Shown one piece after another: positions 5,904 through 19,128 of a stretch of 64,000 bases of DNA (positions within the stretch are counted from its first letter, which is position 1; each line of letters begins with the position of its first letter). Location: positions 393,021 through 457,020 of the forward strand of contig CAWGTN010000002.1 of NCBI GenBank assembly GCA_963825525.1. The letters are read 5' to 3'. The notes below the pieces were generated by a model. That model was not told where the DNA came from, made no database searches, and was given only the letters and a program-made list of their open reading frames with translations. Position numbers and translations under genes: made by a program. This DNA comes from an uncultured Chloroflexia bacterium (lineage in GTDB: Bacteria > Chloroflexota > Limnocylindria > QHBO01).

Positions 5904-6155
5904 ATGACCAGCATGACCGCCGACGAGCGTGACGATCTTCGCAAGGACCAGTTCGCCTACGTCGACCGCGAGGGTGGCGAGCACCTGCCGATCCACGACG
6001 AGTCCCACGTGCGAAACGCCATTGCTCGCTTCAACCAGACCGATTTCGAGAGCAAGACGGCCAAGGAGGAGGCGCGCAAGAAGATCCTGCGCGCCGCCGA
6101 TCGGCACGGCATCGAAGTGGACGAGGACAGCAACGTCCGCCAACCGGTGCGCTGA
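5904..6155 (+). CDS. small acidic hypothetical protein, translationally coupled to ku
   Basis: ATG at 5904 preceded by GAGGAG. The 83-aa product begins MTSMTADERDDLRKDQFAYVDREGGEHLPIHDESHVRNAIARFNQ. Its stop TGA shares a base with the ku ATG (TGATG). Confidence 0.6.
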   Translation: MTSMTADERDDLRKDQFAYVDREGGEHLPIHDESHVRNAIARFNQTDFESKTAKEEARKKILRAADRHGIEVDEDSNVRQPVR

Positions 6156-6986
6156 TGCGACCGATCTGGAAGGGCGCAATCAGCTTCGGGATGGTCACCA
6201 TCCCGGTGAAGGTCTACACGGCCACCGAGGGGAAGGACGTGCGGTTCCGGCTCCTCCACAAGACGGACGGAGCGCCGATCGAGGAGAAGCGGTTCTGCAC
6301 CGAGGATGGGAAGGAAGTGGCCTGGGATGACCTCGTCCGTGGATACGAGGTCAGCAAGGGCGAGTTCGTGATCCTGGAGCCCGACGAGATCGACGCAGCC
6401 AAGCCTGAAAGCAGCACGACGATCGACATCGGCGACTTCGTGGAGGCTTCGGAGATCGACGCCGTCTACTTCGAGAAGAGCTACTTCCTCGAGCCGACCG
6501 GGGTCGGTGCCAAGCCCTTCAGCCTCCTGCGCCGCGCGCTCGAGGAGACCGATCGAGTGGCCCTGGCACGCGTGACACTCCGAACCCGGGAGCGGCTCGC
6601 CACGCTCCGCACGTACGAGGACACGCTGCTCCTCGAGACGATGTTCTGGCCCGATGAGATTCGATCGACCGGTGCGCTGGACCTTCCCGAAGGCGAGGAG
6701 GCGCGCGTCCGTGGCAAGGAGCTCGACATGGCGCGAACCCTCATCGGCGATCTGGCCGACCGGTTCCGTCCCGAGCGCTATACCGACACATACCGGACGG
6801 CGCTCGAGAGCCTGATCGAGCAGAAGATGCGGGGCGAGGTAAAGAACTCGAAGCGTCGAAAGGCCGAGCCCAAGGTCATCGACCTCATGGAGGCGCTCAA
6901 GGCGAGTGTTGCGGAGGCCGGCAAGAAGGGCACGAAGCGTCGCTCCGACCGCGGGCCGGCAGAAGAAGCGCCGCTCCGCCGCCTGA
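6155..6986 (+). CDS. ku: Ku family non-homologous end-joining DNA-binding protein; 3' end inferred assuming a 1-nt indel near 6953
   Basis: N-terminus MRPIWKGAISFGMVTIPVKVYTATE is diagnostic. As given, the frame has no stop until 7795 and runs antisense through the convergent gene. A 1-nt change in the GGG run at 6953-6955 yields the K/R-rich tail ...RRSDRGRQKKRRSAA followed by TGA at 6984-6986. Confidence 0.8.
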
Positions 6987-6991
6987 GTCGG

Positions 6992-7672
6992 CTAGAAGCG
7001 CTCCTGCTCTTCCTCGAGGTCGTCGCCGCCGACGCTCCCCGACCGCTCGGGTTCCGCGGATCCGCCGACACCGAGCGTGACGTCCGCCCGCGACGTCCCC
7101 TCCACTTCGCGACGCTCACCCGGAGTGAAGCTGTCGCTCGTGTCGTCGGGCGTCAGGTCGCCGGTGGCGCCGGTCATGCCGCCACCACCGGCGTTGCCGC
7201 GATCGGTCATCGCTGGCTTCCCGCCTCGACCTCGCCGCGCCAGGCGCCCGATCTCGGAGCCGCGGCTCTCGATGAACTCCTTGAAGCGTTCGAGGTCGCC
7301 CTTGACCTGACGGTCGAGGAACCCGAGCGCGCTTCCGACGGTCTCGACCAGTCCCTCTGGGTCAGCGTCCAGCTGCAGGGTCACCCGGGTCGTCTCGTCG
7401 TCGATGCGGTGAAAAGTCACGACGCCGGCGTTATCGGCGCCCGAGGTGGAGTTCCACGCCACGCGCTCGTCGGCATGCTGCTCGGTGACCTCGGCGTCCC
7501 ACTCCTTTTCCTTGCCCGCCACCTCGGCAACCCAATGGAGATGGGTGTCATCGGTCTGCGTGACCGACTTCACGCCTTCCATGAAGTGAGGGAAGTCCTC
7601 GAACTGGGTCCACTGGTTGTAGGCGGTGCTGACGGGCACCTTGACGTCGATGCTCTCTACGACGGAAGCCAT
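6992..7672 (-). CDS. SRPBCC (polyketide cyclase/dehydrase, START-like) family protein with Gly/Asp-rich C-terminal tail
   Basis: ATG at 7672 with GAGGAG 7 nt upstream; product begins MASVVESIDVKVPVSTAYNQWTQFEDFPHFMEGVKSV. Confidence 0.8.
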   Translation of the reverse strand: MASVVESIDVKVPVSTAYNQWTQFEDFPHFMEGVKSVTQTDDTHLHWVAEVAGKEKEWDAEVTEQHADERVAWNSTSGADNAGVVTFHRIDDETTRVTLQLDADPEGLVETVGSALGFLDRQVKGDLERFKEFIESRGSEIGRLARRGRGGKPAMTDRGNAGGGGMTGATGDLTPDDTSDSFTPGERREVEGTSRADVTLGVGGSAEPERSGSVGGDDLEEEQERF

Positions 7673-7840
7673 GGTCGATCTCCTCTGCGCGTGCGGCGCG
7701 ATGCGATACGTGGTTGCCTGACCACCTTGCAAGGGACGCGCCAGCGCGCACCTCCTCCCATCCCGGCTGAGGGCAAAGGGTCCGTATACTCATGAGGCCC
7801 GCCGCCACCCAGCCCGTCCCGATGTGCCCGCGGAGGCTCC

Positions 7841-10057
7841 GTGCAGTTCACTCCCCCGAGCGTCCCCCGTAAGCCGAGTGCGTGGCTCGCTCTCGGGTGG
7901 CTGGCCGCGATGATCCTGGTCGCCTCGATCGCGCCGGCGCGGGTATCGGCGCACGCCGAGCTCGTGACCTCCGACCCGATCGCGAACAGCTCACTTGTCG
8001 AGGCCCCGTCGACCCTGACGGTGACGTTCAGCGAACGGATCGATCCTGATCGGGCCAGCATCGAGGTACTCGATCTCCAGCTGCGCCCGGTCGCGGGCGT
8101 CGGGCCGGCGCGGGTCGACCCCGAGGGCGTCACCGTCACCTTGGACCTGCCCGTCCTGGATCCGGACGTCTACACCGTCCGCTATGACGTGGTATCGACG
8201 ACCGATGGCCACACGACCAGTGGGTTCTATGCGTTCATCGTCGATCCGACCGGTGCCCAGGCGCCGCCGAGCTCGACGCCCACCGCAACGTCCCCCTCCG
8301 CGGACGCGTTGGCGGTTGCTGCCCGCTGGCTGAGCCTGCTGGGCACGCTGATCGGGCTCGGCACCCTGGTGACCTGGTGGCACTCCGGCCGCCCGCTGGG
8401 CTTCCTGGTGCCCTGGCGCCTCGTGGCCGTGTCATCGTTCGTGGGCGCAGGGGCGCTGGCGGTCTACCTCATGCTCTCCGCCCGCACCATTCCCCCGGGG
8501 CCGGGTGGCCTGCCATTCGACCCTGCGGCCGCGTTCGGGTGGACGCCGTTTGCGGTGGCGATGCGAGTGGCCCTGCTGGGCGGACTGCTGGCCGGGTCGC
8601 TTGCCATCCTCGGAGCGATACGAGGGTCAGCCACCGGTCGGTGGTTGGTCGTCGCCGTGGCGCTTGCGGTCGGCACCTCGCTGGCGGGAATGAGCGCCGG
8701 CGGCCATGGATCGTCCCTCGGTGGACCCGTCAACGGGGCGATCGACTGGCTCCACCTGGTGGCGGCGGCTGCGTGGCTCGGGGGCATCCCGGCGATCTAC
8801 GTCATGGGGCGAAGAACCGCGACGCGGGACGTGCTGCGCCGGCATGGCAGGCTGGCCCTGGTTGCGGCCCCACTCGTCATCCTGACCGGGGTCGCCAACT
8901 CCCCCCTGGTCCTGGGCTCGGCGCGCGGCCTGGTGGCCAGCGAGTACGGCAACCTGCTGCTCGCCAAGGCCACGTTGGCCAGCATCGCGCTCGCAATCGG
9001 CGCTGTGAACCACTTCCTCCTCCGCGGTCGCGGGCGCGGGAGCGCGTCCCTCCTGGTCGCCGCCGAGCTCTCGGTGGCGGTGGTGGCCGTGCTGGCTGCC
9101 GCCACGATGGTGACGGTCCAGCCAGCTGCGGCCCGCCAGGACGTTGTGATCGGGCCGGCCATTCAGCCCGCGCACTTCTTCGGTGAGGCCGGTCCCACGT
9201 CGATCCATGCCTCGGTCAGCATCCCAGCCCCGGGCCGCCAGACGTACCAGGTCACCCTTCGCGACGCCGATACGGGAGCGCCCCGCGACGACATCCAGAA
9301 GGTCTTCCTCGAGTTCACGCCAGTGGAGACCATCGGGCTTGGCACCGAACGCATCGAGCTGGAGCCGAACACGCTCGAGGGTCTGTACTCGACGGCCGCG
9401 GCGGCCACCCCGGTCATCGGCGAGTGGCAGATGCGCGTTGTCGTCCGGCGCGCCGGTGCGCTCGACGAGTCCGTCGAGTTCGGGATGGCGGTACAGGAGC
9501 CCGGCCCCGCCCTGCGTGCCCCGCCGCCGGATACCGGCATCGGCGTCCCGTCACCGATGGCGGCGCTGTGGACGGCGCTGCCCTCGGGGTTGTCGGGCTG
9601 GATCCCGGCCTTCGCGTTGCTCGGGTTAGGCATATGGCTCGGCCGCGTTCATGCGGGACTCGCTCGCCTGCGCATCCCGGTCCTGGCGCTGGCCGTGATC
9701 CTGTTCCTCGGCGTCGGATCTCGTTCCCTGGTGGAGGGTGCGAATCGGCCGACGGTGTCGGACCTGGCGCCATACGCAAGTGCCGCCGCCGGGGATCCCG
9801 AGATCGGCGAGCGCATCTACCGGGCGAACTGCGCGGCGTGCCACGGGACCGATGGCACCGGCGACGGTCCGGTGCAGACGGCCGTGACACCGAGGTCGCT
9901 TGCCGATCGGGTCCCCGCCCTCTCCGACGCCGAGGTGTCGTACCGTATTGCGACGGGCACCGCGGGCACGCCGATGCCGGCCTTTGCCGCCAGCCTGACC
10001 GAACAGGAGCGCGATGACCTCGTGAGCTACCTTCGGGCCAGGTGGGGCACGCCGTGA
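7841..10057 (+). CDS. copper resistance CopC-CopD fusion protein with C-terminal class I cytochrome c domain
   Basis: Signal peptide followed by HAELVTSDP, which is the CopC N-terminal His after cleavage. A polytopic CopD-like region follows. The C-terminus carries CAACHG (CXXCH). Confidence 0.85.
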   Translation: MQFTPPSVPRKPSAWLALGWLAAMILVASIAPARVSAHAELVTSDPIANSSLVEAPSTLTVTFSERIDPDRASIEVLDLQLRPVAGVGPARVDPEGVTVTLDLPVLDPDVYTVRYDVVSTTDGHTTSGFYAFIVDPTGAQAPPSSTPTATSPSADALAVAARWLSLLGTLIGLGTLVTWWHSGRPLGFLVPWRLVAVSSFVGAGALAVYLMLSARTIPPGPGGLPFDPAAAFGWTPFAVAMRVALLGGLLAGSLAILGAIRGSATGRWLVVAVALAVGTSLAGMSAGGHGSSLGGPVNGAIDWLHLVAAAAWLGGIPAIYVMGRRTATRDVLRRHGRLALVAAPLVILTGVANSPLVLGSARGLVASEYGNLLLAKATLASIALAIGAVNHFLLRGRGRGSASLLVAAELSVAVVAVLAAATMVTVQPAAARQDVVIGPAIQPAHFFGEAGPTSIHASVSIPAPGRQTYQVTLRDADTGAPRDDIQKVFLEFTPVETIGLGTERIELEPNTLEGLYSTAAAATPVIGEWQMRVVVRRAGALDESVEFGMAVQEPGPALRAPPPDTGIGVPSPMAALWTALPSGLSGWIPAFALLGLGIWLGRVHAGLARLRIPVLALAVILFLGVGSRSLVEGANRPTVSDLAPYASAAAGDPEIGERIYRANCAACHGTDGTGDGPVQTAVTPRSLADRVPALSDAEVSYRIATGTAGTPMPAFAASLTEQERDDLVSYLRARWGTP

Positions 10058-10084
10058 TCGCGATCCAGACGAGGAGAAGATGAG

Positions 10085-10459
10085 ATGCAGAGACTTGTGC
10101 GCCCGCTGACCGCACTCGCCGCGGGGACGTTGCTCCTCGCCGGCTGCGCGGGGGGCGAATCGGGCTGCACGGACCTCCCGGACCGTGTCGAGATCACCGT
10201 GACCGCCGAGGCATTGGTTCCCGCCCAGCCCGCGGTGTGTGCAGGGCACGAGGTGACGCTGGTCCTGACCGCCGAGGTCGACGGAGTGCTCCACATCCAT
10301 GGCTACGACGAAGAGGCGCCGGCGACCCCGATCGTGGCCGGCGAGGTCAAGGAGCTCACGTTCACGGCGTCCCGCAGCGGTCAGTTTCCGGTGGAGCTCC
10401 ACAGCAATGACGACCCGCAGGGCGTCGATGTAGGGATCTTCACAGTCCATGAGCCCTAG
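10085..10459 (+). CDS. lipoprotein, putative cupredoxin-like metal-binding domain
   Basis: Lipobox LLAGC; HIHGY...ELHS motifs; overlaps the next gene by 11 nt. Confidence 0.65.
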   Translation: MQRLVRPLTALAAGTLLLAGCAGGESGCTDLPDRVEITVTAEALVPAQPAVCAGHEVTLVLTAEVDGVLHIHGYDEEAPATPIVAGEVKELTFTASRSGQFPVELHSNDDPQGVDVGIFTVHEP

Positions 10460-11978
10460 CCGACGGACTGCCGCGGTCGCCGCGGCCCTGGTCTTGCTGC
10501 TCATGCTCATCCCGGGTCGCGTGGCAGCGCACGCCGTCGGCGGGACGTTCGAGCTGCCGGTGCCGCTGTGGCTCTATCTGGCCGGTGCCGGCGCCGCCGT
10601 GGCTGCGTCGTTCGTCGTGCTGGCCGTGGCGTCGCGCGGGGCACCCAGGGCAGCGCCCATCATCCCGATTCCTGCGTCACTGGAGCACGTCGCCCGGCCC
10701 GTGCTCCGTGCCCTCGGGATGGTGTGGTGGTACGGCGCCATCGTGGTTGGGTTCGTGATCGGCGACATCTCGCCGCTGCCGGCCGTGCTGCTGTGGATCG
10801 GCATCTGGGTCGGTCTGCCCATCGTCTCGGTGCTGATCGGCAATCCATGGCCGTCGCTCAGCCCATTCCGCACGACCTTCGCGGGTCTCGAGTGGCTGGC
10901 GCGGCGTGCCGGCGCGGGTCGGCTGGACCTGGGCCTCACCTACCCTCCGGGCCTGGCGCGCTGGCCGGCATTCGCTCTTCTGGCGATTGCCATCTGGGTC
11001 GAGCTCGTGCTGCCGGGCGGCGAGGTGGCGGGCACCGTGGCGGTCCTCATGCTGTCGTACACGGTGATCACCTTGGCCGGGATGCTGTCCGTTGGACCCG
11101 CCGCATGGCTCCGTCACGCCGAACTGTTCGAGGTCCTGCTCGGTTGGTTCGGCAGGATCGGGCCGATCGGTCGCATCTCGACCGATCCCGCCCTGTGCGC
11201 CGGCTGCGGCGATGAATGCGATCCGTCCCGATGCGTTGATTGCCCCGAGTGCTCCACCACGGCCGATGATGGCGAACGCCATGCGGTGCTGCGGCCCTGG
11301 GCCGCCGGGCTGATGGACGCGGGCCGGTCCGGTCCGTCCGACGCGGCATTCATCATCCTGGCGCTGGCCGGCGTCACCTACGACGGACTGCAAGAGACCT
11401 CGATCGGTGGATGGCTGTTCGACCTCGTCTACGGTCCACTCGCCTCGCTGCTGGGTCCCACGGACGCCCGGACGTTCCTCCTCGCCGAGACGGCGCAGTT
11501 CGCGCTGGTCTTCGTCTCATTCATGGCGGCCTTCGTGCTGGTGATCGCGTCGGCCCGGCTCATCGGCGCATCTCAGCACCGGCGACCCCTCGGGTCGGAC
11601 CTCGGCCGCTACGCGATCACCCTGCTCCCGATCGCGGGCGGATACCTCATCGCGCACTACTTCACGCTGGTCATCCAGGGCATCGTCTGGCTGCCGTCGC
11701 TGATCGTCGATCCGTTGATGAGCCTGGCCCCCCAGCTCGACGCCATCCCGATTGCTCTCGTCTGGTACACGAGCGTCGGGGCGATCGTGGTCGGGCACGT
11801 CATCGGGATCGTGCTGGCGCATCGGCTTGCGAAGGCGGATGACCCGAGCCGCTCGACCATCGCCGGCCTACCCCTGGTCGGGTTGATGATCGGATACACG
11901 GTCCTGTCACTCTGGATCATCGCCGCGCCGCTGGTCGTCGAGCCCGGTATTCCGCCGGCCGCGCTGCTCCTTCCATGA
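10449..11978 (+). CDS. polytopic membrane protein of unknown function with a six-Cys loop and His immediately after the predicted signal-peptide cleavage site
   Basis: 509 aa with about 10 TM segments. Predicted signal-peptide cleavage at VAA/HAVGG. Cys cluster CAGCGDECDPSRCVDCPEC at 11195-11252. The stop overlaps the ccdA start (ATGA). Confidence 0.7.
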   Translation: MSPSRRTAAVAAALVLLLMLIPGRVAAHAVGGTFELPVPLWLYLAGAGAAVAASFVVLAVASRGAPRAAPIIPIPASLEHVARPVLRALGMVWWYGAIVVGFVIGDISPLPAVLLWIGIWVGLPIVSVLIGNPWPSLSPFRTTFAGLEWLARRAGAGRLDLGLTYPPGLARWPAFALLAIAIWVELVLPGGEVAGTVAVLMLSYTVITLAGMLSVGPAAWLRHAELFEVLLGWFGRIGPIGRISTDPALCAGCGDECDPSRCVDCPECSTTADDGERHAVLRPWAAGLMDAGRSGPSDAAFIILALAGVTYDGLQETSIGGWLFDLVYGPLASLLGPTDARTFLLAETAQFALVFVSFMAAFVLVIASARLIGASQHRRPLGSDLGRYAITLLPIAGGYLIAHYFTLVIQGIVWLPSLIVDPLMSLAPQLDAIPIALVWYTSVGAIVVGHVIGIVLAHRLAKADDPSRSTIAGLPLVGLMIGYTVLSLWIIAAPLVVEPGIPPAALLLP

Positions 11979-12688
11979 CCGAGGTCAGCATCGGGCTTGC
12001 GTTCCTTGCCGGCCTGATCTCGTTCATCTCGCCGTGCGTGCTGGCCCTGCTGCCGGTCTACCTTGCCTTCCTGGGCGATGCGGCTGCGCTTTCGACCATT
12101 CCGGGCGGTGCAACCGTCACCTCGAGGACGTCGGTTGTCACGCAGGCGCTGCTGTTCATCGGCGGCTTCACGGCCGTCTTCGTGATCCTCGGCACGTCAC
12201 TGGGCCTCGTCGGCGGGCCGCTGTTCCGGATCCCGGAGATCCGGCAGGTTGCGGGCGTGGCCGTGATCGTCCTCGGGGTCCTGACGACCGGCGTCTTCGG
12301 CCCGGTCCTCGATCGCGTGCGCGTGGGCCTGGATCCCGCCGCTCTGCCGGCGGCGCGTTCGGTTCGATCGTTGGCGCTCGGTGCGTTCGTGGCGGTCGGC
12401 TGGTCACCGTGCATCGGCCCGGTCCTGGGCGCCATCTTCACGATGGGGGTCTCCAGCGGCTCCGCGCCGGCGGTGTTCGTGCTGCTCGTGGCCTACTCGG
12501 CGGGACTCGCCGTTCCGTTCCTTGCGGCCGCGGTTGCGCTCCCCCGCCTCCGGCCGCTGCTCGACTGGCTGCGGCGTCACCACACGGCGGTCCAAGTGGT
12601 CTCCGGCGCGTTCATTATCGGCATCGGCATCATGATCTTCTTCAACGTCTTCGCCCAGCTTGCGGGGCTGTTCGTCTTCGTGCTGTAG
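11975..12688 (+). CDS. ccdA: cytochrome c-type biogenesis protein CcdA (DsbD-family thiol-disulfide transporter)
   Basis: Motifs SPCVLALLP and WSPCIGP; six TM segments. Confidence 0.85.
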   Translation: MTEVSIGLAFLAGLISFISPCVLALLPVYLAFLGDAAALSTIPGGATVTSRTSVVTQALLFIGGFTAVFVILGTSLGLVGGPLFRIPEIRQVAGVAVIVLGVLTTGVFGPVLDRVRVGLDPAALPAARSVRSLALGAFVAVGWSPCIGPVLGAIFTMGVSSGSAPAVFVLLVAYSAGLAVPFLAAAVALPRLRPLLDWLRRHHTAVQVVSGAFIIGIGIMIFFNVFAQLAGLFVFVL

Positions 12689-12744
12689 GACTGGCACGGG
12701 CCCTGCGTCGTCCCTCTGGCAAAGCCGAGTACCAGGAGAACCCG

Positions 12745-13317
12745 ATGAACCTCGACGGACTCAAGGTCGCCGTGCTGGTGACCGATGGTTACGAGCCAAG
12801 CGAGCTGACGGAGCCGGTCGCCGCCCTGCAGCAGGCGGGAGCGACCACCACGATCATCTCGAACCACGACGGCACCATCACTGGGAAGACTGATGCCGAC
12901 ACCGCGCAGGTCGACCTCACCCTCGACGGGGCCGATGCTGCCGAGTTCGACGCATTGCTGATCCCCGGCGGCACGAAGAATCCCGACACAATGCGACAGG
13001 AGCCGAAGGCGGTCGATTTCGTGCGCGCCATGTTCGACGCGAAGAAGCCGATGGCCTCCATCTGCCACGGCCCGTGGATGCTCATCGAGGCCGACGTCGT
13101 GCGCGGCCGCCGCGTGACGAGCTACCCCTCGCTGAGGACGGACCTGCGCAACGCCGGCGCCGAGTGGACCGATGAGGAGGTCGTCGTCGACCAGGGCCTC
13201 GTCACGGCCCGCACGCCGAAGGATCTCCCCGCGTTCAACGCCAAGATGGTCGAGGAGTTCGGCGAGGGCACCCACGACCGCCGATCGACGGCCGCCGAGC
13301 CCGTCAGCGCCGGCTGA
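12745..13317 (+). CDS. DJ-1/PfpI family protein (type 1 glutamine amidotransferase-like)
   Basis: ATG at 12745 with AGGAGA upstream; motif ASICHGPWMLIEA. The 5' two-thirds of ORF 12034..13317 are nonsense. Confidence 0.85.
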   Translation: MNLDGLKVAVLVTDGYEPSELTEPVAALQQAGATTTIISNHDGTITGKTDADTAQVDLTLDGADAAEFDALLIPGGTKNPDTMRQEPKAVDFVRAMFDAKKPMASICHGPWMLIEADVVRGRRVTSYPSLRTDLRNAGAEWTDEEVVVDQGLVTARTPKDLPAFNAKMVEEFGEGTHDRRSTAAEPVSAG

Positions 13318-13426
13318 CGATCGGGAGGCGGGATGTCGAGCGCGTCCTCGCCCGAGTCGCGCACCGAGGCACCGCAGCAAGCGCCTGCCGAGGGTCGTCC
13401 GGCGCCGTGATCGGTATCCTTGCGGC

Positions 13427-13772
13427 ATGCCAGCCATTCCCAGCGGGACGGTCACCTTCGTGTTCACCGATATCGAAGGCAGCACGCAGCTTCTGAAGCG
13501 GCTTGGAGACCGCTACGCCGAGCTCCTGGGCCAGCATCGGCGCCTGCTGCGCGCCACCTTTGCCGAGCATGACGGCCAGGAGATCGACACGCAGGGCGAT
13601 GCGTTCTTCTATTCGTTCGCACGTGCCCGCCAGGCAGTGGCCGCGGCGGTCCAGGCCCAGCGAGCGCACGACGAAGCCTCGTGGCCCGACGACGTCGTCC
13701 TCCGCGTCCGGATGGGCCTCCACACCGGTGAGCCTCTCGTCGGTGAGGAGGGGTACACCGGCCTCGATGTCG
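13427..13772 (+). pseudogene. 5' fragment of a class III adenylate/guanylate cyclase-domain regulator gene (cyclase-ATPase-LuxR type), truncated
   Basis: MPAIPSGTVTFVFTDIEGSTQLL...GDAFFYSF...RVRMGLHTGEP...YTGLDV matches the cyclase catalytic-domain N-terminus. Homology stops abruptly after about 115 codons. The ORF then runs on through a lower-GC tail into the convergent response-regulator gene. Confidence 0.55.
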
Positions 13773-13913
13773 TCCTGACCGACGATGACTTGGCAGTGGG
13801 CGCCCAGCCCATCCGACATGTTTGCGGTGCTTTCCACCGGATGGACCGCACTTGTCACGATGCTGCCAAAGAGTCGGGGCTCGGCCCTGCACGGACCAGT
13901 ACGTGGAACGCCG

Positions 13914-14507
13914 CTACTCGGTGCCCTCGAGCCAGCCCTCTCGCAGCGCCCTGGCCGTCAGCTCCGTGCGTGAGGCGACGCCCGTTCGTTCGAACAGTCG
14001 CCGCAGATGCGATTCCACGGTTCTCGAGCTGATGCCAAGCCGCCCGCCGATCTCATCGTTCGACGAGCCGCTGACGATGAGGTCGACCACCTCCCGCTCC
14101 CGGGCCGATAGCCGGACCCCACCTCCGGGCCTGACGCCGAAGGCCAGTCCGCCCGAGGCCGCCCGCCGAATCGCGTCCAGCAGCTCCGACGTGGGGGCGG
14201 TCTTGACCACAAACCCGGCCGCGCCGAGCCGCATGGCGGCATCGGCGTATTGAGGGTAGTCGTACGACGTCAGGCAGACCACGGCCGGCAATGCCGAGTC
14301 ACCGCGGTCGCGCAGGAGCTCGAATCCGGACTCCTGCCCGAGGCGGAGGTCGAGCAGCAGGACGTCGACCGAGCCATCGAGGAGCGGGCGCAGCTCGTCC
14401 AGCGATCCAGCCACTCCGGCGATCTGCATGTCATCGGCGCGATCGATGATGGCGGCCGTTCCCTCGCGCACCAGCGGATGGTCGTCGACGACCGCGACCC
14501 GGATCAT
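13914..14507 (-). CDS. two-component response regulator, NarL/LuxR family
   Basis: Receiver domain VAVVDDHPLVREG...LLLDLRL followed by a LuxR helix-turn-helix LSAREREVVDLIVSGSSNDEIGGRLGISSRTVESHL. Confidence 0.9.
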   Translation of the reverse strand: MIRVAVVDDHPLVREGTAAIIDRADDMQIAGVAGSLDELRPLLDGSVDVLLLDLRLGQESGFELLRDRGDSALPAVVCLTSYDYPQYADAAMRLGAAGFVVKTAPTSELLDAIRRAASGGLAFGVRPGGGVRLSAREREVVDLIVSGSSNDEIGGRLGISSRTVESHLRRLFERTGVASRTELTARALREGWLEGTE

Positions 14508-14519
14508 CGGCTCACTGGC

Positions 14520-15611
14520 TCATTGCGGGCGCCACTCGAGAGCGACACGCGTGCCGCCGCTCGGCCAGCGACGAACGTCGAGCAGGGCGCCGATCTGCTC
14601 CGCCCGCTGCTGCATGTTGACGAGCCCGAAGTGGCCATCGCCCGGCGCCTCCTCGGTGGCGTCGGAGCCGATCCCGTCGCCGGCGTCGTCGATGGCCAGC
14701 GTGACCCGTCCATCGGCGCTCACGTCGTAGCGGACCGCGATCGGCGGCTTGCCATGCTTGATCGCATTGGTCAGCGCTTCCTGGGCGACGCGGAAGACCG
14801 CCAGCTCCACGTCGGCGGGCGGGCGCGAGGCGTCGGAGCGCTCGAGCTTCACCACGCCGCCGGCAAGGGGCTCGACACGCTCGACGAGCCATTCGAGCGC
14901 GGCTCCGGCACCCAGATCGTCGAGGATCGGCAGGCGCAGGTCCCCGACCACGGAGCGCAGCTTCGTCGCGACCTCGCGTGCCTCGGCGGCTTCGGCTTCG
15001 TGGCCACCCTCGTCGAGGGTACGGACCAGCATGGTGAGCTGCTGGAGCGCGTCGTCGTGGAGGTCCGCGGCCAGGCGAGCGCGCTCCGTCTCCGCGGCCG
15101 CGACCGCGACGTCGCGCTGGAGCTGGGTCCTGACTGCCAGTCCAACGAGCGGATTGATCGCGAGGTAGCGCCAGACCACGATCCCGCCAAGCCAGCCGGC
15201 AAGGATCAGCCCGCCGGCCGAGTTCGGTACGAGGACCAGCGACGCGACAAGTGGTGTTGCGGCCACCGCAAGCGTCTCGAGGCGCCACGCCATCGCCCTC
15301 GGTTCGGTCCGATCAGCGAAGGCGACCGGGATGCCCGGGATGAGTGGGATCAATCCCACCAGAGGGACGAAGAAGCGGGATTGGAGCAGGGCGGTGATGA
15401 CGAACAGGCCGGCGAGGCCGACCGAAGCCATGAAGAGGCGTGCCGCAAGTGATGGATCGGAGTGGCGCGACGCGAGCAGATGCGCGACCGACAATCCGGC
15501 AAAGGCGGCCGGCAGCAACAGGATCGGTTGACCTTCGGAGTACGACCCCCAGGCGGCGGGCACCAGGAGGATCGGAACGGCGACGGCTGCTGCCAGACGG
15601 AATGGCCGCAT
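14520..15611 (-). CDS. sensor histidine kinase, HisKA_3/NarL-type, multi-TM N-terminus
   Basis: About five TM helices, followed by the H-box LAADLHDDALQQL and an HATPase_c region (DDAGDGIG, GLVNMQQRA). In this frame, TGA lies 20 codons upstream of the ATG. Confidence 0.85.
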   Translation of the reverse strand: MRPFRLAAAVAVPILLVPAAWGSYSEGQPILLLPAAFAGLSVAHLLASRHSDPSLAARLFMASVGLAGLFVITALLQSRFFVPLVGLIPLIPGIPVAFADRTEPRAMAWRLETLAVAATPLVASLVLVPNSAGGLILAGWLGGIVVWRYLAINPLVGLAVRTQLQRDVAVAAAETERARLAADLHDDALQQLTMLVRTLDEGGHEAEAAEAREVATKLRSVVGDLRLPILDDLGAGAALEWLVERVEPLAGGVVKLERSDASRPPADVELAVFRVAQEALTNAIKHGKPPIAVRYDVSADGRVTLAIDDAGDGIGSDATEEAPGDGHFGLVNMQQRAEQIGALLDVRRWPSGGTRVALEWRPQ

Positions 15612-16458
15612 CGGTCCAGTCGCTGCCGAACACGCCCTGGCGCAGCCCGATCCAGATCACGAGGCCGACGGCAGAACCGAGGACGATCGCCCACTCCGAC
15701 TGGTGGGTGAGAGAGATGACCAGTGCGAGGCCGATGAGCGCGAGGGTGAGCAGGTCCCGACGCTCGCGATCGAGCGGGGACGCCGTCGGATCCGGCGAGA
15801 TCCGCACCGATCGCATGCGCGCGAACCCCGCGCTGACCCGTCGCATTCCTCGCTCCCACGGAAGCGCAAAGCTGGTGGCAACAGCCCCGAACGCCACCAT
15901 GGGCCACACCGGCATGACGTCGCTCGGCACGATGGCAACGAGGCCGATGGCGGGCAGGATGCCCAGCGCAAACAGCTGCCCGCGCTCGCGTGCGCTGCGC
16001 TTCCCGGTCAGTCCGGCAAGCACCCCGGGCGCGAATGCAACGGCGCCATAGAGCACGGCGATCGGGCCTCGCTCGTCCGGTGACAGCGTCGGCGTCGTCA
16101 TGTGCTGCACCACGAGCAGCGCCGCCACCACGGCGGCTCCGCCAGTGATCGCCAGTCCCGCCCGCCTACGGCCCTGAGACGACATGTGGTCGACGAGTCC
16201 CATGCCCAGGAGCACGGCCACAGCAAGCGTGGTCGCCCAGGTCGCGGCGACGCCGACCCCGCTACCGACTTCGACGACCGGGACCAGCAGGAGCGGCAAC
16301 GCCACGGCCACAGCGGCGACGAACGCCAAGCGCCGTCCCGCAGCGCCCATCAGTCCGCGGAGGAGGAGATACGCGACGATGGCGGCCAGCAGCAGGCCGA
16401 ACCCCACGGCGTAGATGTCGGTGGCGAGCGTGCTCTCGAGCCACTGGCGCTCCATCAT
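15313..16458 (-). CDS. polytopic membrane protein (LiaF-position partner of the two-component system); true 3' end uncertain
   Basis: TM-rich sequence from MMERQWLESTLATDIYAVGFGLLLAAIVAYLL through to ...IWIGLRQGVFGSDWTD. After that the frame continues as Arg-rich nonsense for 300 nt over the HK N-terminal coding region. Confidence 0.5.
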   Translation of the reverse strand: MMERQWLESTLATDIYAVGFGLLLAAIVAYLLLRGLMGAAGRRLAFVAAVAVALPLLLVPVVEVGSGVGVAATWATTLAVAVLLGMGLVDHMSSQGRRRAGLAITGGAAVVAALLVVQHMTTPTLSPDERGPIAVLYGAVAFAPGVLAGLTGKRSARERGQLFALGILPAIGLVAIVPSDVMPVWPMVAFGAVATSFALPWERGMRRVSAGFARMRSVRISPDPTASPLDRERRDLLTLALIGLALVISLTHQSEWAIVLGSAVGLVIWIGLRQGVFGSDWTDAAIPSGSSRRRSDPPGARRLGVVLRRSTDPVAAGRLCRIVGRASARVAPLRSITCGTPLHGFGRPRRPVRHHRPAPIPLLRPSGGIDPTHPGHPGRLR

Positions 16459-16489
16459 TCCGTACCCGTACACCACGACCCCGCGCTGG

Positions 16490-16978
16490 TCGCCCTCGAA
16501 CGCGCCTGTCTTCGTAGACGTCGCCCACGATGATGCCGGCGATGCGGCCGGATGAGATCGCCTCGATCGGGATGGACATGGCGTCGCCGTATTCCGAGTG
16601 CATGACGACCTCCCCGACGCCAGGCGAATCCAGCGTCGATACGGACTCAACCGGGGCACCGTCGACCGTGGTCAGGGACACGACGCGCGAGCCGGGGTAG
16701 ATGCCGTTGCGCGCGGCGTTCCCATCAGGCGTGACGGACACGACGAAGACGCCCGGGAGGGTCGCATCCGCGAATCCGGGCAAGGGCATCATCGCGGCGG
16801 CCTGCGATCCCTCCGCGAGCTCGAGCCCGATGGCGACGCGGCCGTTCGCCCACAACGCGACGCTCGACAGCACGGCGCCGGTCGCGATGAGGATCGCCAG
16901 GACGTCGCGCCAGGTGGGTCGCAGCGGCATGCTCGGACCATACCAGCGCTCCATCGGCCCACCAATGCGGTAGATCAC
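16490..16978 (-). CDS. membrane-anchored PDZ domain protein, N-terminal part; reading frame lost near 16500 (possibly one gene with 15313..16458)
   Basis: Product begins MIYRIGGPMERWYGPSMPLRPTWRDVLAILIATGAVLSSVALW, followed by a PDZ-like GVFVVSVTPDGNAARNGIYPGSRVVSLTTVDGAPV. After IIVGDVYEDRR the frame turns to Arg-rich nonsense. Confidence 0.5.
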
Positions 16979-17182
16979 CTAATCGGAAGCGGTGAGCCAC
17001 CGGATGGGCGTCGGCTCATCTCACGGTCACCATTGGCTGCCGAGGAGGTGAATCGATGCAGACCCTTCGCGCGTCCGCCATCGCGGTCCCGTTCGTCGCC
17101 CTCGCCGTGCTGGTGGCGCTGCTCTCTCTGATCGTCGGGCCGGGGGCCTAGGCGTCTTTGCCGGCTAAGCACCGAGATTCGG

Positions 17183-17611
17183 CTAGGCGGGCGAGGCGTC
17201 CCCGATTTGACGGCCTTCACCTTCGCAGCCCCAGCCGATCCTTGGCTGCGGACGGCCACCGATCAAGGGTCCGTCGCGTTCGACGAACACGATGAGCTGC
17301 TCGTTCGGTGTCCCCGCGACGTCGCCAACTTCGCCGTCGGGCGGCGGCACGCACCAGCACTCGGAGTAGCCTGCGTTCCCGTTCATCGACGTCCCGTAGG
17401 AGTAGCGCCAGCTTGGACGGATGCCAGCAGCCTCGAGCGCCGCGCTCGCCTCTTCGGCGCTGAGTCCGGTGATCGGAGGCACTTCCCTGTCGCCAAGCAC
17501 CTCATCGGCAGCCGGCGGGTCCTGGCAAGCCAAACCGCTCTCTCCGATCCCGAGCCCGCACGCCGTCAGCACCGTGAACAGGCCGATGAGCAACCCGACT
17601 CGCACGACCAT
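17183..17611 (-). CDS. lipoprotein with PASTA-like domain
   Basis: Lipobox LTAC; motif ITGLSAEEASAALEAAGIRPSW. Confidence 0.6.
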   Translation of the reverse strand: MVVRVGLLIGLFTVLTACGLGIGESGLACQDPPAADEVLGDREVPPITGLSAEEASAALEAAGIRPSWRYSYGTSMNGNAGYSECWCVPPPDGEVGDVAGTPNEQLIVFVERDGPLIGGRPQPRIGWGCEGEGRQIGDASPA

Positions 17612-17612
17612 G

Positions 17613-17739: not shown

Positions 17740-17815
17740 TGGCGCCCCCGGAGGGATTCGAACCCCCGACGCCCGCCTTAGGACGGCGGCGCTCTATCCA
17801 CTGAGCTACGGGGGC
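17740..17815 (-). tRNA. tRNA-Arg (anticodon CCT)
   Basis: Manual fold: acceptor GCCCCCG/CGGGGGC, D-arm GCTCAGTGGATAGAGC, anticodon stem CCGCC/GGCGG with loop GTCCTAA, T-arm GGGGGTTCGAATCCCTC, encoded CCA. Confidence 0.9.
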
Positions 17816-17849: not shown

Positions 17850-18083
17850 ATGCCGTCCCGTCCCACGCTCTATGTCCGCCACGGGTGCCACCTGTGCGAG
17901 GACGCGAGCGTCCTTCTCGACGCCATGCTGGGAGCCGATGGATGGGACGCGGTCGACATCGAGGCCGATGACGACCTCCTCGTGCGCTACGCGCACCGAA
18001 TCCCCGTGCTCGCCGTCGACGGCGAGGATCGGTGCGAACTGATGATCACCCGTCCCGACGTCGAGGCGGCGCTGGCCCGATGA
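17850..18083 (+). CDS. glutaredoxin-like protein (DUF836 family)
   Basis: 77 aa with CHLC (CxxC) near the N-terminus; the stop overlaps the next start (ATGA). Confidence 0.8.
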   Translation: MPSRPTLYVRHGCHLCEDASVLLDAMLGADGWDAVDIEADDDLLVRYAHRIPVLAVDGEDRCELMITRPDVEAALAR

Positions 18084-18637
18084 TCCCCGCGGTGCTGCGG
18101 CGACGTCGGTGGAGCCTCGCATGGCTCATCGGCATCATCGGCCTGGCGATCGTATTCGGCGTGCTGGCGACCATCCCGCTGCTGCGCGGCACGCCCGACG
18201 GTCGGAGTGGGCCCCTGGTCGGCCAGCCGGCGCCTGAATTCCGGCTCGAGGACCTCGCGGGCCGCACCTGGTCCCTCGATGAGGCCGATGGCCGCCTGGT
18301 CTGGGTCAACTTCTGGGCCACGAGCTGCGAGCCATGCCGCACCGAGATGCCGGCCATGCAACGCCTGGCGGACGCCTACCCCGACGAGCTGCTCATCCTT
18401 GGGATCGATTGGGGCGAGGGACGCGACGCTGTCACAGACTTCGTCGACCGCTACGGCGTCGAGTATCCGATCCTGCTGGACCCCACTCTCGAGACCTACT
18501 ACCGCTGGGCGGGAACGGACGGCCTTCCACGCCACTACTTCATCGGCGCCGAGGGGACCGTCCTGCGAGAGGTGATCGGCCCGCTCGATCCGGCACGCAT
18601 GGTGACGATCGTCGAGGAGCTACTGGAGGGGGCGTGA
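18080..18637 (+). CDS. TlpA/ResA-family thiol-disulfide oxidoreductase (membrane-anchored thioredoxin fold)
   Basis: N-terminal TM anchor; active-site motif WATSCEPC. Confidence 0.85.
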   Translation: MIPAVLRRRRWSLAWLIGIIGLAIVFGVLATIPLLRGTPDGRSGPLVGQPAPEFRLEDLAGRTWSLDEADGRLVWVNFWATSCEPCRTEMPAMQRLADAYPDELLILGIDWGEGRDAVTDFVDRYGVEYPILLDPTLETYYRWAGTDGLPRHYFIGAEGTVLREVIGPLDPARMVTIVEELLEGA

Positions 18638-18693: not shown

Positions 18694-19128
18694 TCAGCCC
18701 TCGACGACGATCGCCCCGGTCATCTCGGCCGGGTGCAGGTCGCACACGAAGAAGTACTCCCCCGCCTCGAGCGTGGGAACCTCGACCTCGACAGTCGCGC
18801 CGGCGTCGATGATCTCGCCGGTGACGATGGCCTCGCCACCCTCCTCGGTGTAGACGCTGAAGTTGTGCGGGACGGTGTCGTTGTTGACGAGGGTGACGGT
18901 GAACGCCTCGCCGGCCGTCGCCTGGATAACGTTGGCGTCGAACGCCAGGTCGGCCGCGGTGATCTCGGCGGCGCCATCGATGACGCCGATGGTGCCACCA
19001 CCTGTGTTGTCGTCATCGGCCGACGCGCCGTCGCCGCTCCCGGAAGAGCACGCCGCGAGCACGAAGGCGAGGGTAGCGAGGATGATCAGGAACGGCGCAC
19101 GACGCAGCGCCGATGGGTTGGTCTTCAT
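18694..19128 (-). CDS. blue copper (cupredoxin/plastocyanin-like) lipoprotein
   Basis: ATG at 19128; lipobox LAAC. Type-1 copper ligands ...PHNF... and C-terminal CDLHPAEM (Cys-x2-His-x2-Met). Confidence 0.8.
   Translation of the reverse strand: MKTNPSALRRAPFLIILATLAFVLAACSSGSGDGASADDDNTGGGTIGVIDGAAEITAADLAFDANVIQATAGEAFTVTLVNNDTVPHNFSVYTEEGGEAIVTGEIIDAGATVEVEVPTLEAGEYFFVCDLHPAEMTGAIVVEG

Follow-up and report, generated by a model that had tools for sequence, protein, structure and literature searches.

A putative copper acquisition and cuproprotein maturation locus in an uncultured Limnocylindria bacterium

The window analyzed here, a stretch of 64,000 nucleotides from an uncultured Chloroflexota (Limnocylindria) bacterium, contains a copper-handling cluster of five co-directional plus-strand genes, g1 to g5 (positions 7841-13317). 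We think it probable that the locus serves copper acquisition and cuproprotein maturation by two modules which became joined in this lineage. A YcnJ-like importer with its own cytochrome c is thereby joined, in a conserved cluster, to the undescribed g2-g3 pair and its apparently new membrane fold. The sequence data show the domain identities, the conserved residues, the conserved gene order and the lack of known g3 relatives; we infer the metal specificity, transport direction, electron flow and co-transcription given below. The copper theme of the original prediction is supported, the common strand of all genes is confirmed and all its domain calls hold, but it counted six genes where the window has five, as that prediction's own title lists.

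The g1 gene (7841..10057, plus strand) encodes a 738-aa protein with a signal peptide, a CopC domain (aa 38-134), a CopD domain of eight transmembrane (TM) helices (aa 156-430), a YtkA-like beta domain (aa 435-560), a TM hairpin (aa 583-634) and a class I cytochrome c domain (aa 639-738). The matches to CopC, CopD, Cytochrome_CBB3 and Cytochrom_C score 61, 47.7, 47.2 and 45.5 bits, respectively, all above the Pfam cut-offs. The His-brace residues H38, D122 and H124 of CopC are invariant across 70 homologues, and the CXXCH...M signature of the cytochrome c domain (9755..10054, plus strand; C664-A-A-C667-H668 with distal M712) is invariant in 70-71 sequences. The middle domain (9143..9520, plus strand) is predicted to be periplasmic and all-beta, with 8-9 strands in the AF2 model. 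It has no direct match in Pfam even at E<=1; by hhalign (91.6%, E 8.2e-7) it is related to small membrane-anchored proteins encoded beside g3 homologues, of which 7/15 match Pfam YtkA weakly, the best with E 0.0024. Because two TM helices lie between this domain and the cytochrome, the AF2 model would place the cytochrome back in the periplasm. Judged from sequence and profile comparisons, g1 is a YcnJ-type architecture with an appended cytochrome c. The idea that cytochrome c had taken the place of YtkA was not borne out, since a predicted all-beta domain is kept at the YtkA position and the cytochrome is added after two extra helices. Nor is the fusion uncommon within its own lineage, as had been claimed: among the database clusters listed, CopC and CopD occur in 120/120 and a cytochrome c family in 119/120. 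The CopC-CopD-cytochrome c fusion was also found in one Dehalococcoidia genome.

Bacillus subtilis YcnJ (CopC-CopD-YtkA, ycnKJI operon) shares with g1 the His-brace CopC, the 8-helix CopD with its conserved histidines and an extracytoplasmic beta domain. YcnJ supports the haem-copper oxidases; CuA assembly is helped by the YtkA domain (PMC13344008). Unlike YcnJ, g1 belongs to a different phylum, adds the two-helix hairpin and the class I cytochrome c, and has a beta domain which is below the Pfam YtkA threshold and linked by profile-profile comparison alone; no YcnI or YcnK gene adjoins it. In the YobA-YebZ-YebY system of E. coli and the CopC/CtiP system of Corynebacterium, CopC and CopD are separate, whereas in g1 they are fused and followed by cytochrome c. 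There, a CopC whose Cu(II) site is His-Asp-His and the membrane protein CopD act together in copper uptake and delivery (PMC8689200, PMC9145763). As in the YobA and CtiP systems, an extra stand-alone CopC gene is found in 16/51 relatives of the g1 locus (e.g. L001), between g1 and g2, and is absent from the window. Unlike those systems, the g1 locus has no YebY or PCuAC partner, and Caa3_CtaG, to which the CopD-like region of CtiP is fused, occurs here solely beside a g3 paralogue.

In the first of the proposed modules, the periplasmic CopC domain of g1 would take Cu(II) through its N-terminal His brace, the CopD domain would transport the copper and the YtkA-like domain could hand it to oxidase-type clients. 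The cytochrome c, tethered by the two extra helices, may give one electron to reduce CopC-bound Cu(II) to Cu(I). Local one-electron Cu(II) reduction coupled to copper trafficking has been discussed as a missing activity of YcnJ-type systems (PMC13344008). CcoG/FixG of Rhodobacter capsulatus, a cupric reductase for cbb3 assembly, is a candidate for a protein that works like the g1 cytochrome c or g3. It shares no sequence or fold relationship with them, neither g1 nor g3 has a Fer4 or FixG_C match in Pfam, and its electron carriers are cytoplasmic 4Fe-4S clusters as opposed to the periplasmic haem c proposed for g1.

The cluster is very unlikely to be a copper resistance determinant which sequesters periplasmic copper or oxidizes Cu(I) with cytochrome c as acceptor. 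The g1 CopC domain contains no methionine and thus lacks the Met-rich site that binds Cu(I) in resistance-type CopC; its His-Asp-His Cu(II) site is that described for the uptake-type YobA and YcnJ. CopC and CopD alone, when expressed, give copper hypersensitivity (PMC8689200), and no CopA multicopper oxidase, CopB, CopRS or P-type ATPase was found in the Pfam-annotated neighborhood of L001 or in the scanned ORFs of the window. On the other side, NCBI names the homologues "copper resistance protein CopC", a cytochrome c could in principle take an electron from Cu(I), and the paralogue-type locus L085 (order Cupredoxin_1, g3, Caa3_CtaG) lies beside ArsR and CDF cation-efflux genes.

The g3 gene (10449..11978, plus strand) encodes a 509-aa member of an uncharacterized family with a signal peptide, about ten TM helices and a periplasmic C-terminus, a predicted topology which obeys the positive-inside rule and suits C-terminal fusions to periplasmic domains. 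It has zero matches in Pfam, no known fold relative and no recognizable transporter fold or energy-coupling element. All its homologues come from metagenomes and are annotated as "hypothetical". The predicted mature N-terminus is His28, and a His follows the AxA signal-peptidase site in 97/97 sequences. Further invariant His residues lie in helices 8 and 9, and the model places H403 and H450 at similar depth in neighboring helices. An invariant N-terminal His exposed by cleavage is also found in the "anglerase" domains (Ang-1/Ang-2) of HupE/UreJ permeases, where, by the authors' proposal, it captures a metal ion for transfer to the permease (PMC12537917). Unlike HupE/UreJ, to which it has no homology, g3 has about 10 helices and 500 residues and lacks a soluble domain set apart at its N-terminus. 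A separately encoded cupredoxin is its partner, and the g3 neighborhood points to copper, not nickel. The invariant N-terminal His of g3 would by itself equally fit nickel, another metal or a catalytic site.

A loop with six Cys residues (C250, C253, C257, C262, C265 and C268; 11196..11252, plus strand) is predicted to be cytoplasmic by the loop charge distribution and the predicted helices, and is well modeled (pLDDT 83-91). It is present in 149/149 Limnocylindria-type members and in 78/208 distant ones, with two or fewer Cys in 36/208 distant members. The sole match of its profile in the PDB, ribosomal protein eL40 (E 2.5), is not significant. It is a candidate zinc-ribbon-like or metal-binding accessory domain. 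Since this loop has a predicted cytoplasmic position and lacks family-wide conservation, it was rejected as a client of CcdA.

The g2 gene (10085..10459, plus strand) encodes a 124-aa lipoprotein (lipobox LAGC) with a predicted Cys-less cupredoxin fold. H70-x-H72-G-Y-D75 is invariant and is followed by conserved G99-x-F101 and H106, the last replaced by Glu in two distant members; a Cys28/Cys52 pair is clade-specific. The cupredoxin-like lipoprotein of the original prediction stands through its relatives, since the window protein by itself scores 17.7 bits against Cupredoxin_1, under the Pfam cut-off of 27. The L061 orthologue scores 33.7 bits, and the g2 profile matches nitrosocyanin (3.4e-6), two-domain laccase (4.5e-6), Cu nitrite reductase (1.3e-5) and oxidase subunit II (2.3e-5) in the PDB. 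By these comparisons, and solely through relatives and the profile, the cupredoxin fold is taken to be genuine. The profile resembles HxH cupredoxins (E 3e-6 to 1e-4), a group with the HWHG of multicopper oxidases, Cu nitrite reductase, nitrosocyanin and the CuB site of PmoB, the last mentioned in PMC12537917. Unlike these, g2 is a single 100-residue domain without the Cys or Met ligands of type-1 copper. In the profile alignment its HxHG sits where multicopper oxidases have type 2/3 copper ligands.

The copper theme around g3 recurs in unrelated lineages as SOD, YtkA-like and CtaG neighbors or fusions. Homologue P0287 carries a C-terminal Cu/Zn superoxide dismutase (Sod_Cu, E 6.6e-34), P0295 is fused C-terminally to a YtkA-like domain, and YtkA-like genes adjoin g2-g3 in Dehalococcoidia. 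The sequence comparisons suggest that g2-g3 is a widespread, previously undescribed pair which very probably handles copper. In the second module, g3 may bind copper and carry it through the membrane or along the outer side by way of H28, H403/H450 and H458, and g2 would be its periplasmic partner with the HxHGYD site. Permease-attached domains with an N-terminal His have been described to "fish" for metal ions (PMC12537917). The g2-g3 pair is the most unusual element of the cluster and had been missed by the original prediction.

It is less likely that the g2-g3 pair serves redox chemistry and does not move copper; its electron partners would then be cytochrome c and the downstream-encoded blue copper protein. 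In one version, g3 would be a membrane electron conduit or a cupric reductase like CcoG/FixG or FtrD, with the cytoplasmic six-Cys loop as Fe-S site and the membrane His residues as haem b ligands. The similar predicted depth of H403 and H450 and the well-modeled loop, present in all Limnocylindria-type members, are in its favor, and whether a dedicated cupric reductase is required has been raised as a question (PMC13344008). In many family members, however, the loop is absent or degenerate, which rules it out as the core function; no ferredoxin-type Pfam match or CX2CX2CX3CP motif was found, and the three invariant membrane His of g3 are too few for a two-haem relay. In the other version, the pair would form a new membrane-bound mononuclear-copper oxidoreductase. 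In PmoB, the N-terminal His and an HxH form one copper site. We hypothesize by analogy that such a site could be split between g3 and g2, which would recall CuB, and the g2 HxHG coincides in position with the interface-type copper ligands of laccases and nitrite reductases. Cytochrome c is encoded beside g3 in three arrangements: in the window, in L076 as a separate gene directly 5' of the g3 homologue, and in L079 (Dehalococcoidia) as a CopC-CopD-cytochrome c gene at the same position; the L076 and L079 orders also count for the copper acquisition reading. A type-1 copper protein is encoded nearby in 27/36 loci. Against a redox role, no substrate-related genes were found in the neighborhoods examined.

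Gene order was compared in 54 close, species-level Limnocylindria-type loci and up to 22 distant ones, with denominators that vary by gene. Within the class, g2-g3-ccdA is the conserved core and its order is beyond chance: g2 adjoins g3 in 52/54 close loci and in 15/21 distant ones, and ccdA lies directly 3' of g3 in 54/54 Limnocylindria-type loci. Outside the class just the g2-g3 pair persists, with ccdA beside g3 in 0/22. The linkage expected by the original prediction is kept throughout for this core and in part of the loci for the ends of the cluster, as g1 is upstream in 28/51 close loci and DJ-1 is present in 10/50. The absence of g1 from 23/51 loci and of ccdA beside g3 outside the class suggests that the modules can work independently.

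The g4 gene (11975..12688, plus strand) encodes a 237-aa CcdA-type thiol-reductant transporter (DsbD_TM 29.2 bits, cut-off 27.1) with just two Cys, Cys21 and Cys146, each in an SPC motif, in helices 1 and 4. The claim that ccdA is coupled to the copper importer and its cytochrome did not survive the comparison, because ccdA also follows g3 in the 23 loci without g1 and thus is linked to g2-g3 rather than to the cytochrome. The Cys pair of g2 coincides with the ccdA link, a covariation which amounts to one evolutionary event. A thiol-redox link is partly supported by the fixed position of ccdA, which is seen solely within the class, a single clade; the glutaredoxin-like and TlpA genes belong to a separate unit. 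In the proposed scheme, CcdA would export reducing equivalents and the TlpA/ResA-like protein encoded nearby would keep periplasmic cysteines reduced, with the g2 Cys28/Cys52 pair, the g1 CXXCH and cysteine ligands of copper centers as candidate clients. TlpA keeps CuA-site and Sco cysteines reduced in Bradyrhizobium (PMC9145763).

The glutaredoxin-like protein (17850..18083, plus strand; DUF836, CHLC motif, Pfam Glrx-like 54.8 bits) is encoded downstream, at a distance of up to 10 kb, in 28/36 related loci. The membrane-anchored ResA/TlpA-like thiol-disulfide oxidoreductase (18080..18637, plus strand; CEPC, AhpC-TSA 69.9 and Redoxin 51.2 bits) probably starts at ATG 18080, overlaps the Glrx-like stop by 4 nt, scores 93 bits against the ResA subfamily, below the cut-off of 170, and is found downstream in 17/36 loci by phmmer. 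The type-1 (blue) copper lipoprotein (Cupredoxin_1 59, Copper-bind 36.2 bits) has the full ligand set H...C-x2-H-x4-M (VPHNF...FVCDLHPAEM). All three had been correctly identified, but the copper protein lies on the minus strand (18694..19128), convergent with the cluster. A minus-strand tRNA-Arg(CCT) (17740..17815; Rfam 62.3 bits and ARAGORN) stands between the cluster and the Glrx-like/TlpA genes, so no transcript is shared; in L001 the same tRNA lies between DJ-1 and the Glrx-like gene.

The two-Cys DsbD_TM core with CEPC thioredoxin-like and Glrx-like proteins nearby resembles the CcdA-TlpA/ResA pathway, and the locus encodes both of its client classes, a CXXCH apocytochrome as well as copper-site cysteines. 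There is a small chance that the thiol genes serve cytochrome c maturation as housekeeping genes (System II redox branch) and merely neighbor the copper genes. CcdA with ResA is a known apocytochrome c reductant pathway (PMC9145763), the CEPC protein has ResA as its best NCBIfam match, g1 itself requires haem attachment, and the Glrx-like and TlpA genes beyond the tRNA form a transcription unit of their own. However, no ResB/ResC gene is present in the annotated L001 neighborhood, which includes ccdA. Unlike in CcdA-TlpA/ResA systems with resBC or sco, ccdA appears translationally coupled to the uncharacterized g3, as suggested by their ATGA overlap, and the oxidoreductase is in another transcription unit. 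The constant place of ccdA after g3, with or without g1, and its coincidence with the g2 Cys pair also argue against a housekeeping role.

The junctions g1/g2, g2/g3, g3/g4 and g4/g5 measure 27, -11, -4 and +56 nt. A candidate promoter element, CCGTATACTC (7782..7791, plus strand), with a -10-like TATACT, lies about 50 nt 5' of the g1 start. Of 29 orthologous g1 upstream regions, 10-12 have this or an overlapping 10-mer and up to 15 have overlapping 8-mers; the window has 4 matches with at most one mismatch vs. 0.93 expected. A consensus sigma-70 scan gave no match anywhere in the region, and the terminator-like count was not above shuffled sequence; in this phylum, scans for promoters or terminators carry no information. 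The tight or overlapping spacing, the conserved -10-like element and the terminator-like count make a single g1-g4 transcript plausible.

The gaps of 28 nt or less that had been proposed apply up to g4, as the one transcript plausibly does; they fail before g5 (12745..13317, plus strand), for which no ATG, GTG or TTG start nearer to ccdA exists. This gene encodes a 190-aa protein of the DJ-1/PfpI/YhbO family with Cys107-His108 (DJ-1_PfpI 184.8 bits; TIGR01382 183.4 bits, cut-off 139). It had been assigned to the operon; it is probably a neighbor and not a component of the cluster, being preceded by the largest gap and its own Shine-Dalgarno sequence, AGGAGA, and following ccdA in few related loci.

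The cluster at 7841-13317 consists of five plus-strand genes: g1, encoding a CopC-CopD-cytochrome c protein (7841-10057, 738 aa); g2, a cupredoxin-like lipoprotein (10085-10459, 124 aa); g3, a membrane protein of about ten helices (10449-11978, 509 aa); g4, ccdA (11975-12688, 237 aa); and g5, a DJ-1/PfpI protein (12745-13317, 190 aa). g1 and g2 are 27 nt apart, g2 and g3 overlap by 11 nt, g3 and g4 overlap by 4 nt (ATGA), and 56 nt separate g4 from g5. The original prediction had counted six genes with gaps of 28 nt or less. No sixth gene was found, the g1/g2 spacer being only 27 nt, and the 56-nt interval after ccdA contains no ATG, GTG or TTG that would bring the DJ-1 start (ATG 12745) closer. 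Shine-Dalgarno-like sequences precede g1 (GGAGG), g2 (GAGGAG) and g5 (AGGAGA). None precedes g3 or g4, both of which start within the stop region of the preceding gene, an arrangement that fits translational coupling. Two extracytoplasmic metal-handling modules are fixed in this tightly packed, conserved cluster. The window has a G+C content of 67-72%, and the top matches of its proteins are metagenome-assembled genomes of Chloroflexota, class Candidatus Limnocylindria. We rate the locus as a copper uptake and maturation cluster containing one component family of unknown kind; all individual domains of g1, g4 and g5 are already known. The observation in the original prediction is partly confirmed and its interpretation partly supported.

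A consensus scan of the region found no sigma-70-type promoter anywhere, a scan that is uninformative for this phylum. Terminator-like hairpins numbered 5 against 2.3 +/- 1.7 in shuffles, which we graded as no more frequent and as equally uninformative for the phylum; one weak hairpin lies within the end of g4. These scans speak neither for nor against an operon; indirect signs that g1-g5 may be co-transcribed are the overlaps and gaps at the junctions, the hairpin count and the kept order of g2-g3-g4. An Rfam scan returned tRNA only and no riboswitch. About 50 nt upstream of g1, the AT-rich element CCGTATACTC (7782-7791), which contains TATACT, recurs in 10-15 of 29 upstream regions of g1 orthologues, and this recurrence suggests a promoter in front of g1. 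Three more copies with one mismatch each lie at 2391-2400 (-), 23694-23703 (+) and 54674-54683 (-). The four found in the window compare with 0.93 expected, and four were reached in 1 of 100 shuffles. The element may be a -10-type promoter element in common use in this organism, or else a regulator site.

Gene order was examined at 80 loci from species-representative genomes, picked through g3 alignment, by scoring the window proteins against six-frame ORFs. At Limnocylindria-type loci (g3 at least 50% identical) the g2-g3-ccdA order is kept, with g2 adjoining g3 in 52 of 54 and ccdA directly 3' of g3 in all 54. The expected linkage did not extend to the flanking genes to the same degree: the CopC-CopD-cytochrome c gene is immediately upstream in 28 of 51 and DJ-1 follows ccdA in 10 of 50. 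An additional stand-alone CopC occupies the g1/g2 interval in 16 of 51, so that relatives such as L001 do have six genes. Within 10 kb downstream, a glutaredoxin-like gene was found in 28 of 36 loci, a blue copper protein in 27 of 36 and a TlpA-like gene in 17 of 36. Distant lineages (Rubrobacterales, Dehalococcoidia, Rokubacteria and other Actinomycetota; g3 identity 33-38%) keep only g2-g3, with g2 in 15 of 21 by phmmer and ccdA in 0 of 22. Copper-specific domains recur around g3 in unrelated lineages. At one Dehalococcoidia locus (L079) the gene immediately upstream of g3 is a CopC-CopD-cytochrome c gene of 743 aa; at another (L076) that place is taken by a separate cytochrome c gene. Dehalococcoidia loci typically have g3 preceded by a YtkA-like gene and a cupredoxin-like gene of greater length. 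A paralogue-type locus reads Cupredoxin_1, g3, a 63-aa ORF and Caa3_CtaG, with ArsR and CDF genes alongside.

The predicted CopC-CopD-cytochrome c fusion was borne out by domain annotation, in which g1 scored above the curated thresholds for CopC, CopD and two cytochrome c families. In an AlphaFold model (pLDDT 86, pTM 0.81) a beta CopC domain is followed by eight membrane helices at 156-430 (CopD), an all-beta domain at 435-560, a two-helix membrane hairpin at 583-634 and a helical cytochrome c domain at 639-735. The CopC domain combines a PF04234 match above the curated threshold with the CopC fold. Its H38 directly follows ...ARVSA, giving an N-terminal His after the signal peptide, and an Asp-x-His motif completes the site; among 71 homologues D122 and H124 are invariant and H38 is nearly invariant. 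There is no Met-rich site and no Met at all in residues 32-155, the CopC region, which places the domain in the Cu(II)-only His-Asp-His class known from YobA and YcnJ (PMC8689200). The database label would make the cluster a copper resistance determinant. This is unlikely with a CopC domain of the Met-free Cu(II) type, and neither the annotated neighbourhood of L001 nor the scanned ORFs of the window contain CopA, CopB, CopRS or an efflux ATPase. The CopD domain scores 47.7 bits against a PF05425 threshold of 32.1, has eight helices and carries conserved histidines, of which H305 and H335 are invariant and H289 and H391 nearly so in the same homologues; against the CopD NCBIfam equivalog it falls short of the cut-off (52 vs 195). 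The C-terminal domain is a class I c-type cytochrome by its CXXCH, distal Met, family profile and fold, and the haem c residues C664, C667, H668 and M712 are conserved among the 71 homologues, as are H445 and H456 in the middle domain.

It had been implied that cytochrome c replaces the YtkA domain of YcnJ-type fusions. Our results point to an addition instead. Residues 433-640 have no Pfam match at E<=1. In the AlphaFold model the all-beta domain occupies the YtkA (PF13115) position of YcnJ-type fusions, and its profile aligns with small Dehalococcoidia proteins encoded beside g3 homologues (hhalign probability 91.6%, E 8e-7). These small proteins have a signal peptide and a C-terminal anchor, and 7 of 15 weakly match Pfam YtkA, with a best E of 0.0024, below the cut-off. 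With a YtkA-like middle domain apparently retained, the most fitting description of g1 is a YcnJ-type protein of CopC-CopD-YtkA-like build to which a hairpin and a cytochrome c have been added. Databases already contain the CopC-CopD-cytochrome c architecture under generic names: CopC and CopD occur together in each of the 120 clusters listed, and a cytochrome c family is present as well in 119 of them. In the literature searched we found no published description of a CopD/cytochrome c (CXXCH) fusion.

By this likeness g1 would act like YcnJ, which needs its CopC and CopD copper sites and whose YtkA domain contributes to CuA assembly (PMC13344008). According to a 2026 study of YcnJ (PMC13344008), CopC binds Cu(II), YcnJ has no known reductase, and the system may call for a dedicated cupric reductase, CcoG being one example. 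A periplasmic cytochrome c tethered beside CopC would be an obvious candidate electron donor. This natural tether on a CopC-CopD-YtkA scaffold makes the electron source for CopC-to-CopD copper transfer testable with a single polypeptide.

The g2 protein has a lipobox, LAGC. Its prediction as a cupredoxin-like lipoprotein is upheld for the fold through orthologues and the family profile, the window protein itself being below the Cupredoxin_1 (PF13473) cut-off (17.7 vs 27). Orthologues pass it (33.7 bits at L061 and 30.7 bits for the g3 partner at L082), and the profile matches solved structures of nitrosocyanin, two-domain laccases, copper nitrite reductases and oxidase subunit II with E values of 3e-6 to 1e-4. 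Invariant residues of the family are H70, H72, G73, D75, G99 and F101; position 106 is His throughout the initial set of 64 sequences, with Glu in its place in two members that are more distant. We rejected a type-1 (blue) copper site because the family has no conserved Cys ligand, Cys28 and Cys52 being clade-specific and outside the ligand loop. The convergent blue copper lipoprotein gene at 18694-19128 (-) does encode the Cys thiolate, two His and Met of a type-1 site, which g2 fails to provide. The HxHG of g2 sits where multicopper oxidases and nitrite reductases have the ligands of their copper sites at domain or subunit interfaces, and by analogy with this position a copper site shared between g2 and g3 is conceivable. 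Long g2 forms in Dehalococcoidia have an extra domain with a GEGHAH(V/I)YVDG motif. In the same group, genes for small membrane-anchored His-rich proteins (DHH[FY]AER.P.H.H...; L063:7886-8380, with similar ORFs at L080, L082 and L083) precede the YtkA-like, cupredoxin-like and g3 genes. Both these proteins and the extra domain appear to be additional metal-binding components of this system.

No Pfam or NCBIfam match was obtained for g3, and 44 diverse members of its family had no weak recurring Pfam signal in common. Searches of curated families and solved structures (Pfam, NCBIfam, PDB) gave neither sequence nor fold similarity, and the g2-g3 pair has no counterpart among those searched. The family comprises 2206 representative clusters at E<=1e-3 and 1005 at E<=1e-10; these at least 2,200 sequence clusters spread over Chloroflexota, Actinomycetota, Rokubacteria and some Proteobacteria, and all named members, distant relatives included, are labelled 'hypothetical protein'. 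When g3 was considered as a divergent CopD or CtaG, hhalign aligned the signal peptides only; judged by its sequence, g3 is unrelated to CopD. An apparent g2-g3 fusion ('Rosetta stone'), P0278, was discarded as a frameshifted read-through of two overlapping genes, since its g2 sequence is followed by out-of-frame text and g3 fragments. Some homologues are 690-925 aa long (P0392, P0249, P0319, L065:9920-12643) and have a conserved soluble C-terminal extension, which had no Pfam match, an uninformative result; its sequence (e.g. VTNGPYxLKxW) recalls family-5 solute-binding proteins. Two others (P0254, P0302) end in TPR repeats.

Residue 28 of g3 is His in 97 of 97 sequences. It is preceded at -1 by Ala (91) or Gly (6), and 96 of the 97 sequences have Ala, Val, Leu, Thr or Ile, residues that are small or aliphatic, at -3; the model is disordered at residues 24-27. 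With such signal-peptidase-type residues before an invariant His, cleavage should leave His28 first in the mature protein, as in CopC. The n-region of the signal peptide (10449-10530) reads SRRTAAV, and its RR pair, also present in many homologues, recalls a twin-arginine motif, which would be unusual for a polytopic membrane protein; the pair may be ordinary positive charge. W116, W120, Y399, H403, W439, H450, H458, Y483 and T484 are also invariant, and E185, D312 and D421 nearly so. From the model helices and the loop charge distribution we infer that the N-terminus, D421 and the C-terminus are periplasmic and the 216-295 loop cytoplasmic. C-terminal fusions to Cu/Zn superoxide dismutase (P0287) and a YtkA-like domain (P0295) among the relatives fit a periplasmic C-terminus.

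The predicted cytoplasmic loop contains a six-Cys motif (C250-C268, CX2CX3CX4CX2CX2C), found in all 149 Limnocylindria-type sequences and in 78 of 208 distant ones; from this distribution it is an accessory feature. Its predicted location and lack of conservation led us to reject the loop as a CcdA client. A CcoG/FixG-type cupric reductase was also rejected as an identity for g3, there being no Fer4 or FixG_C match and the Cys loop being missing from many members. More generally, a redox role for g2-g3 as a cupric reductase, electron conduit or new copper oxidoreductase is weakened by the dispensable Cys loop, the few membrane His residues of g3 and the lack of a haem or Fe-S signature.

In the copper-handling role that we favor, the N-terminal His of g3 would bind copper near a cluster of conserved polar residues facing the periplasm, and g3 would relay it along H403/H450 and H458, inward or outward, to metallate periplasmic clients, with g2 as its periplasmic partner. 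A recent proposal holds that permease-attached proteins with an N-terminal His 'fish' for metals (PMC12537917). The joint proposition that g2-g3 form a new class of membrane copper machinery and that the g1-fused cytochrome c is the missing built-in cupric reductase of YcnJ-type importers is one we offer tentatively, with doubt outweighing confidence. Such a ten-helix, new-fold g3 would combine membrane His residues with an N-terminal His brace created by signal peptidase, and would share an interface-type copper site with the Cys-less HxHGYD cupredoxin g2. It might act as a non-ATPase copper permease or insertase that serves cuproenzymes of the periplasm; a new copper oxidoreductase of the membrane is a further, bolder possibility. 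The pair belongs to a large, phylogenetically broad, unannotated family whose members recur in the company of copper genes, with occasional fusions to Cu/Zn superoxide dismutase. Its characterization could reveal a new copper delivery route or a new histidine-brace metalloprotein, and would put a name to thousands of genes now called 'hypothetical' in Chloroflexota and Actinomycetota from soil and freshwater.

The assignment of g4 as CcdA held, with a marginal pass of DsbD_TM (PF02683; 29.2 bits vs 27.1) and two Cys only, C21 (ISPCV) and C146 (WSPCI), both in SPC motifs. The g5 protein is a DJ-1/PfpI/YhbO member (TIGR01382 183.4 vs 139.05; Pfam 184.8) with a C107-H108 nucleophile elbow within ASICHGPW; its family identity stands, and its predicted membership of the copper system does not, given its low synteny. 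The glutaredoxin-like (17850-18083, +) and TlpA/ResA-like (18080-18637, +) genes form a separate unit, because a tRNA-Arg(CCT) gene at 17740-17815 (-) lies between DJ-1 and the glutaredoxin-like gene in both the window and L001. The TlpA/ResA-like CEPC protein would be supplied by CcdA; pathways of this kind are known to serve the CXXCH motifs of apocytochromes as well as cysteines in copper sites and in Sco (PMC9145763). The Cys28/Cys52 pair of g2 is an additional candidate client; the two residues are present in 49 of 53 and 53 of 53 Limnocylindria sequences, respectively, and in 0 of 11 distant ones. This parallels the presence of ccdA, a correlation that is weak because it comes from a single clade. 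CcdA and ResA in general are accounted for by housekeeping maturation of cytochrome c, which leaves the strict g3-ccdA coupling in cytochrome-lacking loci unexplained.

Between DJ-1 and the 3' end of the tRNA-Arg gene, 4.4 kb (13318-17739) are specific to the window and absent from the syntenic L001. Encoded in the segment are a fragment of an adenylate/guanylate cyclase (13421-14032, +), truncated and covering profile positions 5-114 of 183, a response regulator of the LuxR type (13914-14507, -) and a histidine kinase (14520-15611, -); there are also membrane ORFs that have no Pfam match. No integrase was seen in it, and it looks like a small insertion beside a tRNA gene. Upstream of the cluster, a Ku gene (6155-7795, +; Pfam Ku at residues 10-192) is a 546-aa ORF running through a convergent polyketide-cyclase/SRPBCC gene (6992-7732, -). 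Since Ku is 291 aa in L001, the long ORF may reflect a lost stop codon or frameshift and not a real extension. In Rubrobacterales and Actinomycetota (L059, L061, L062, L064 and L069, ~8647-9561), the gene directly preceding g2-g3, on the same strand, encodes a protein of 304 aa that has an HxHxDH metallo-beta-lactamase motif. In the window (19227-20105, -) and in most Limnocylindria loci, a Lactamase_B gene different from this one is found just past the blue copper gene.
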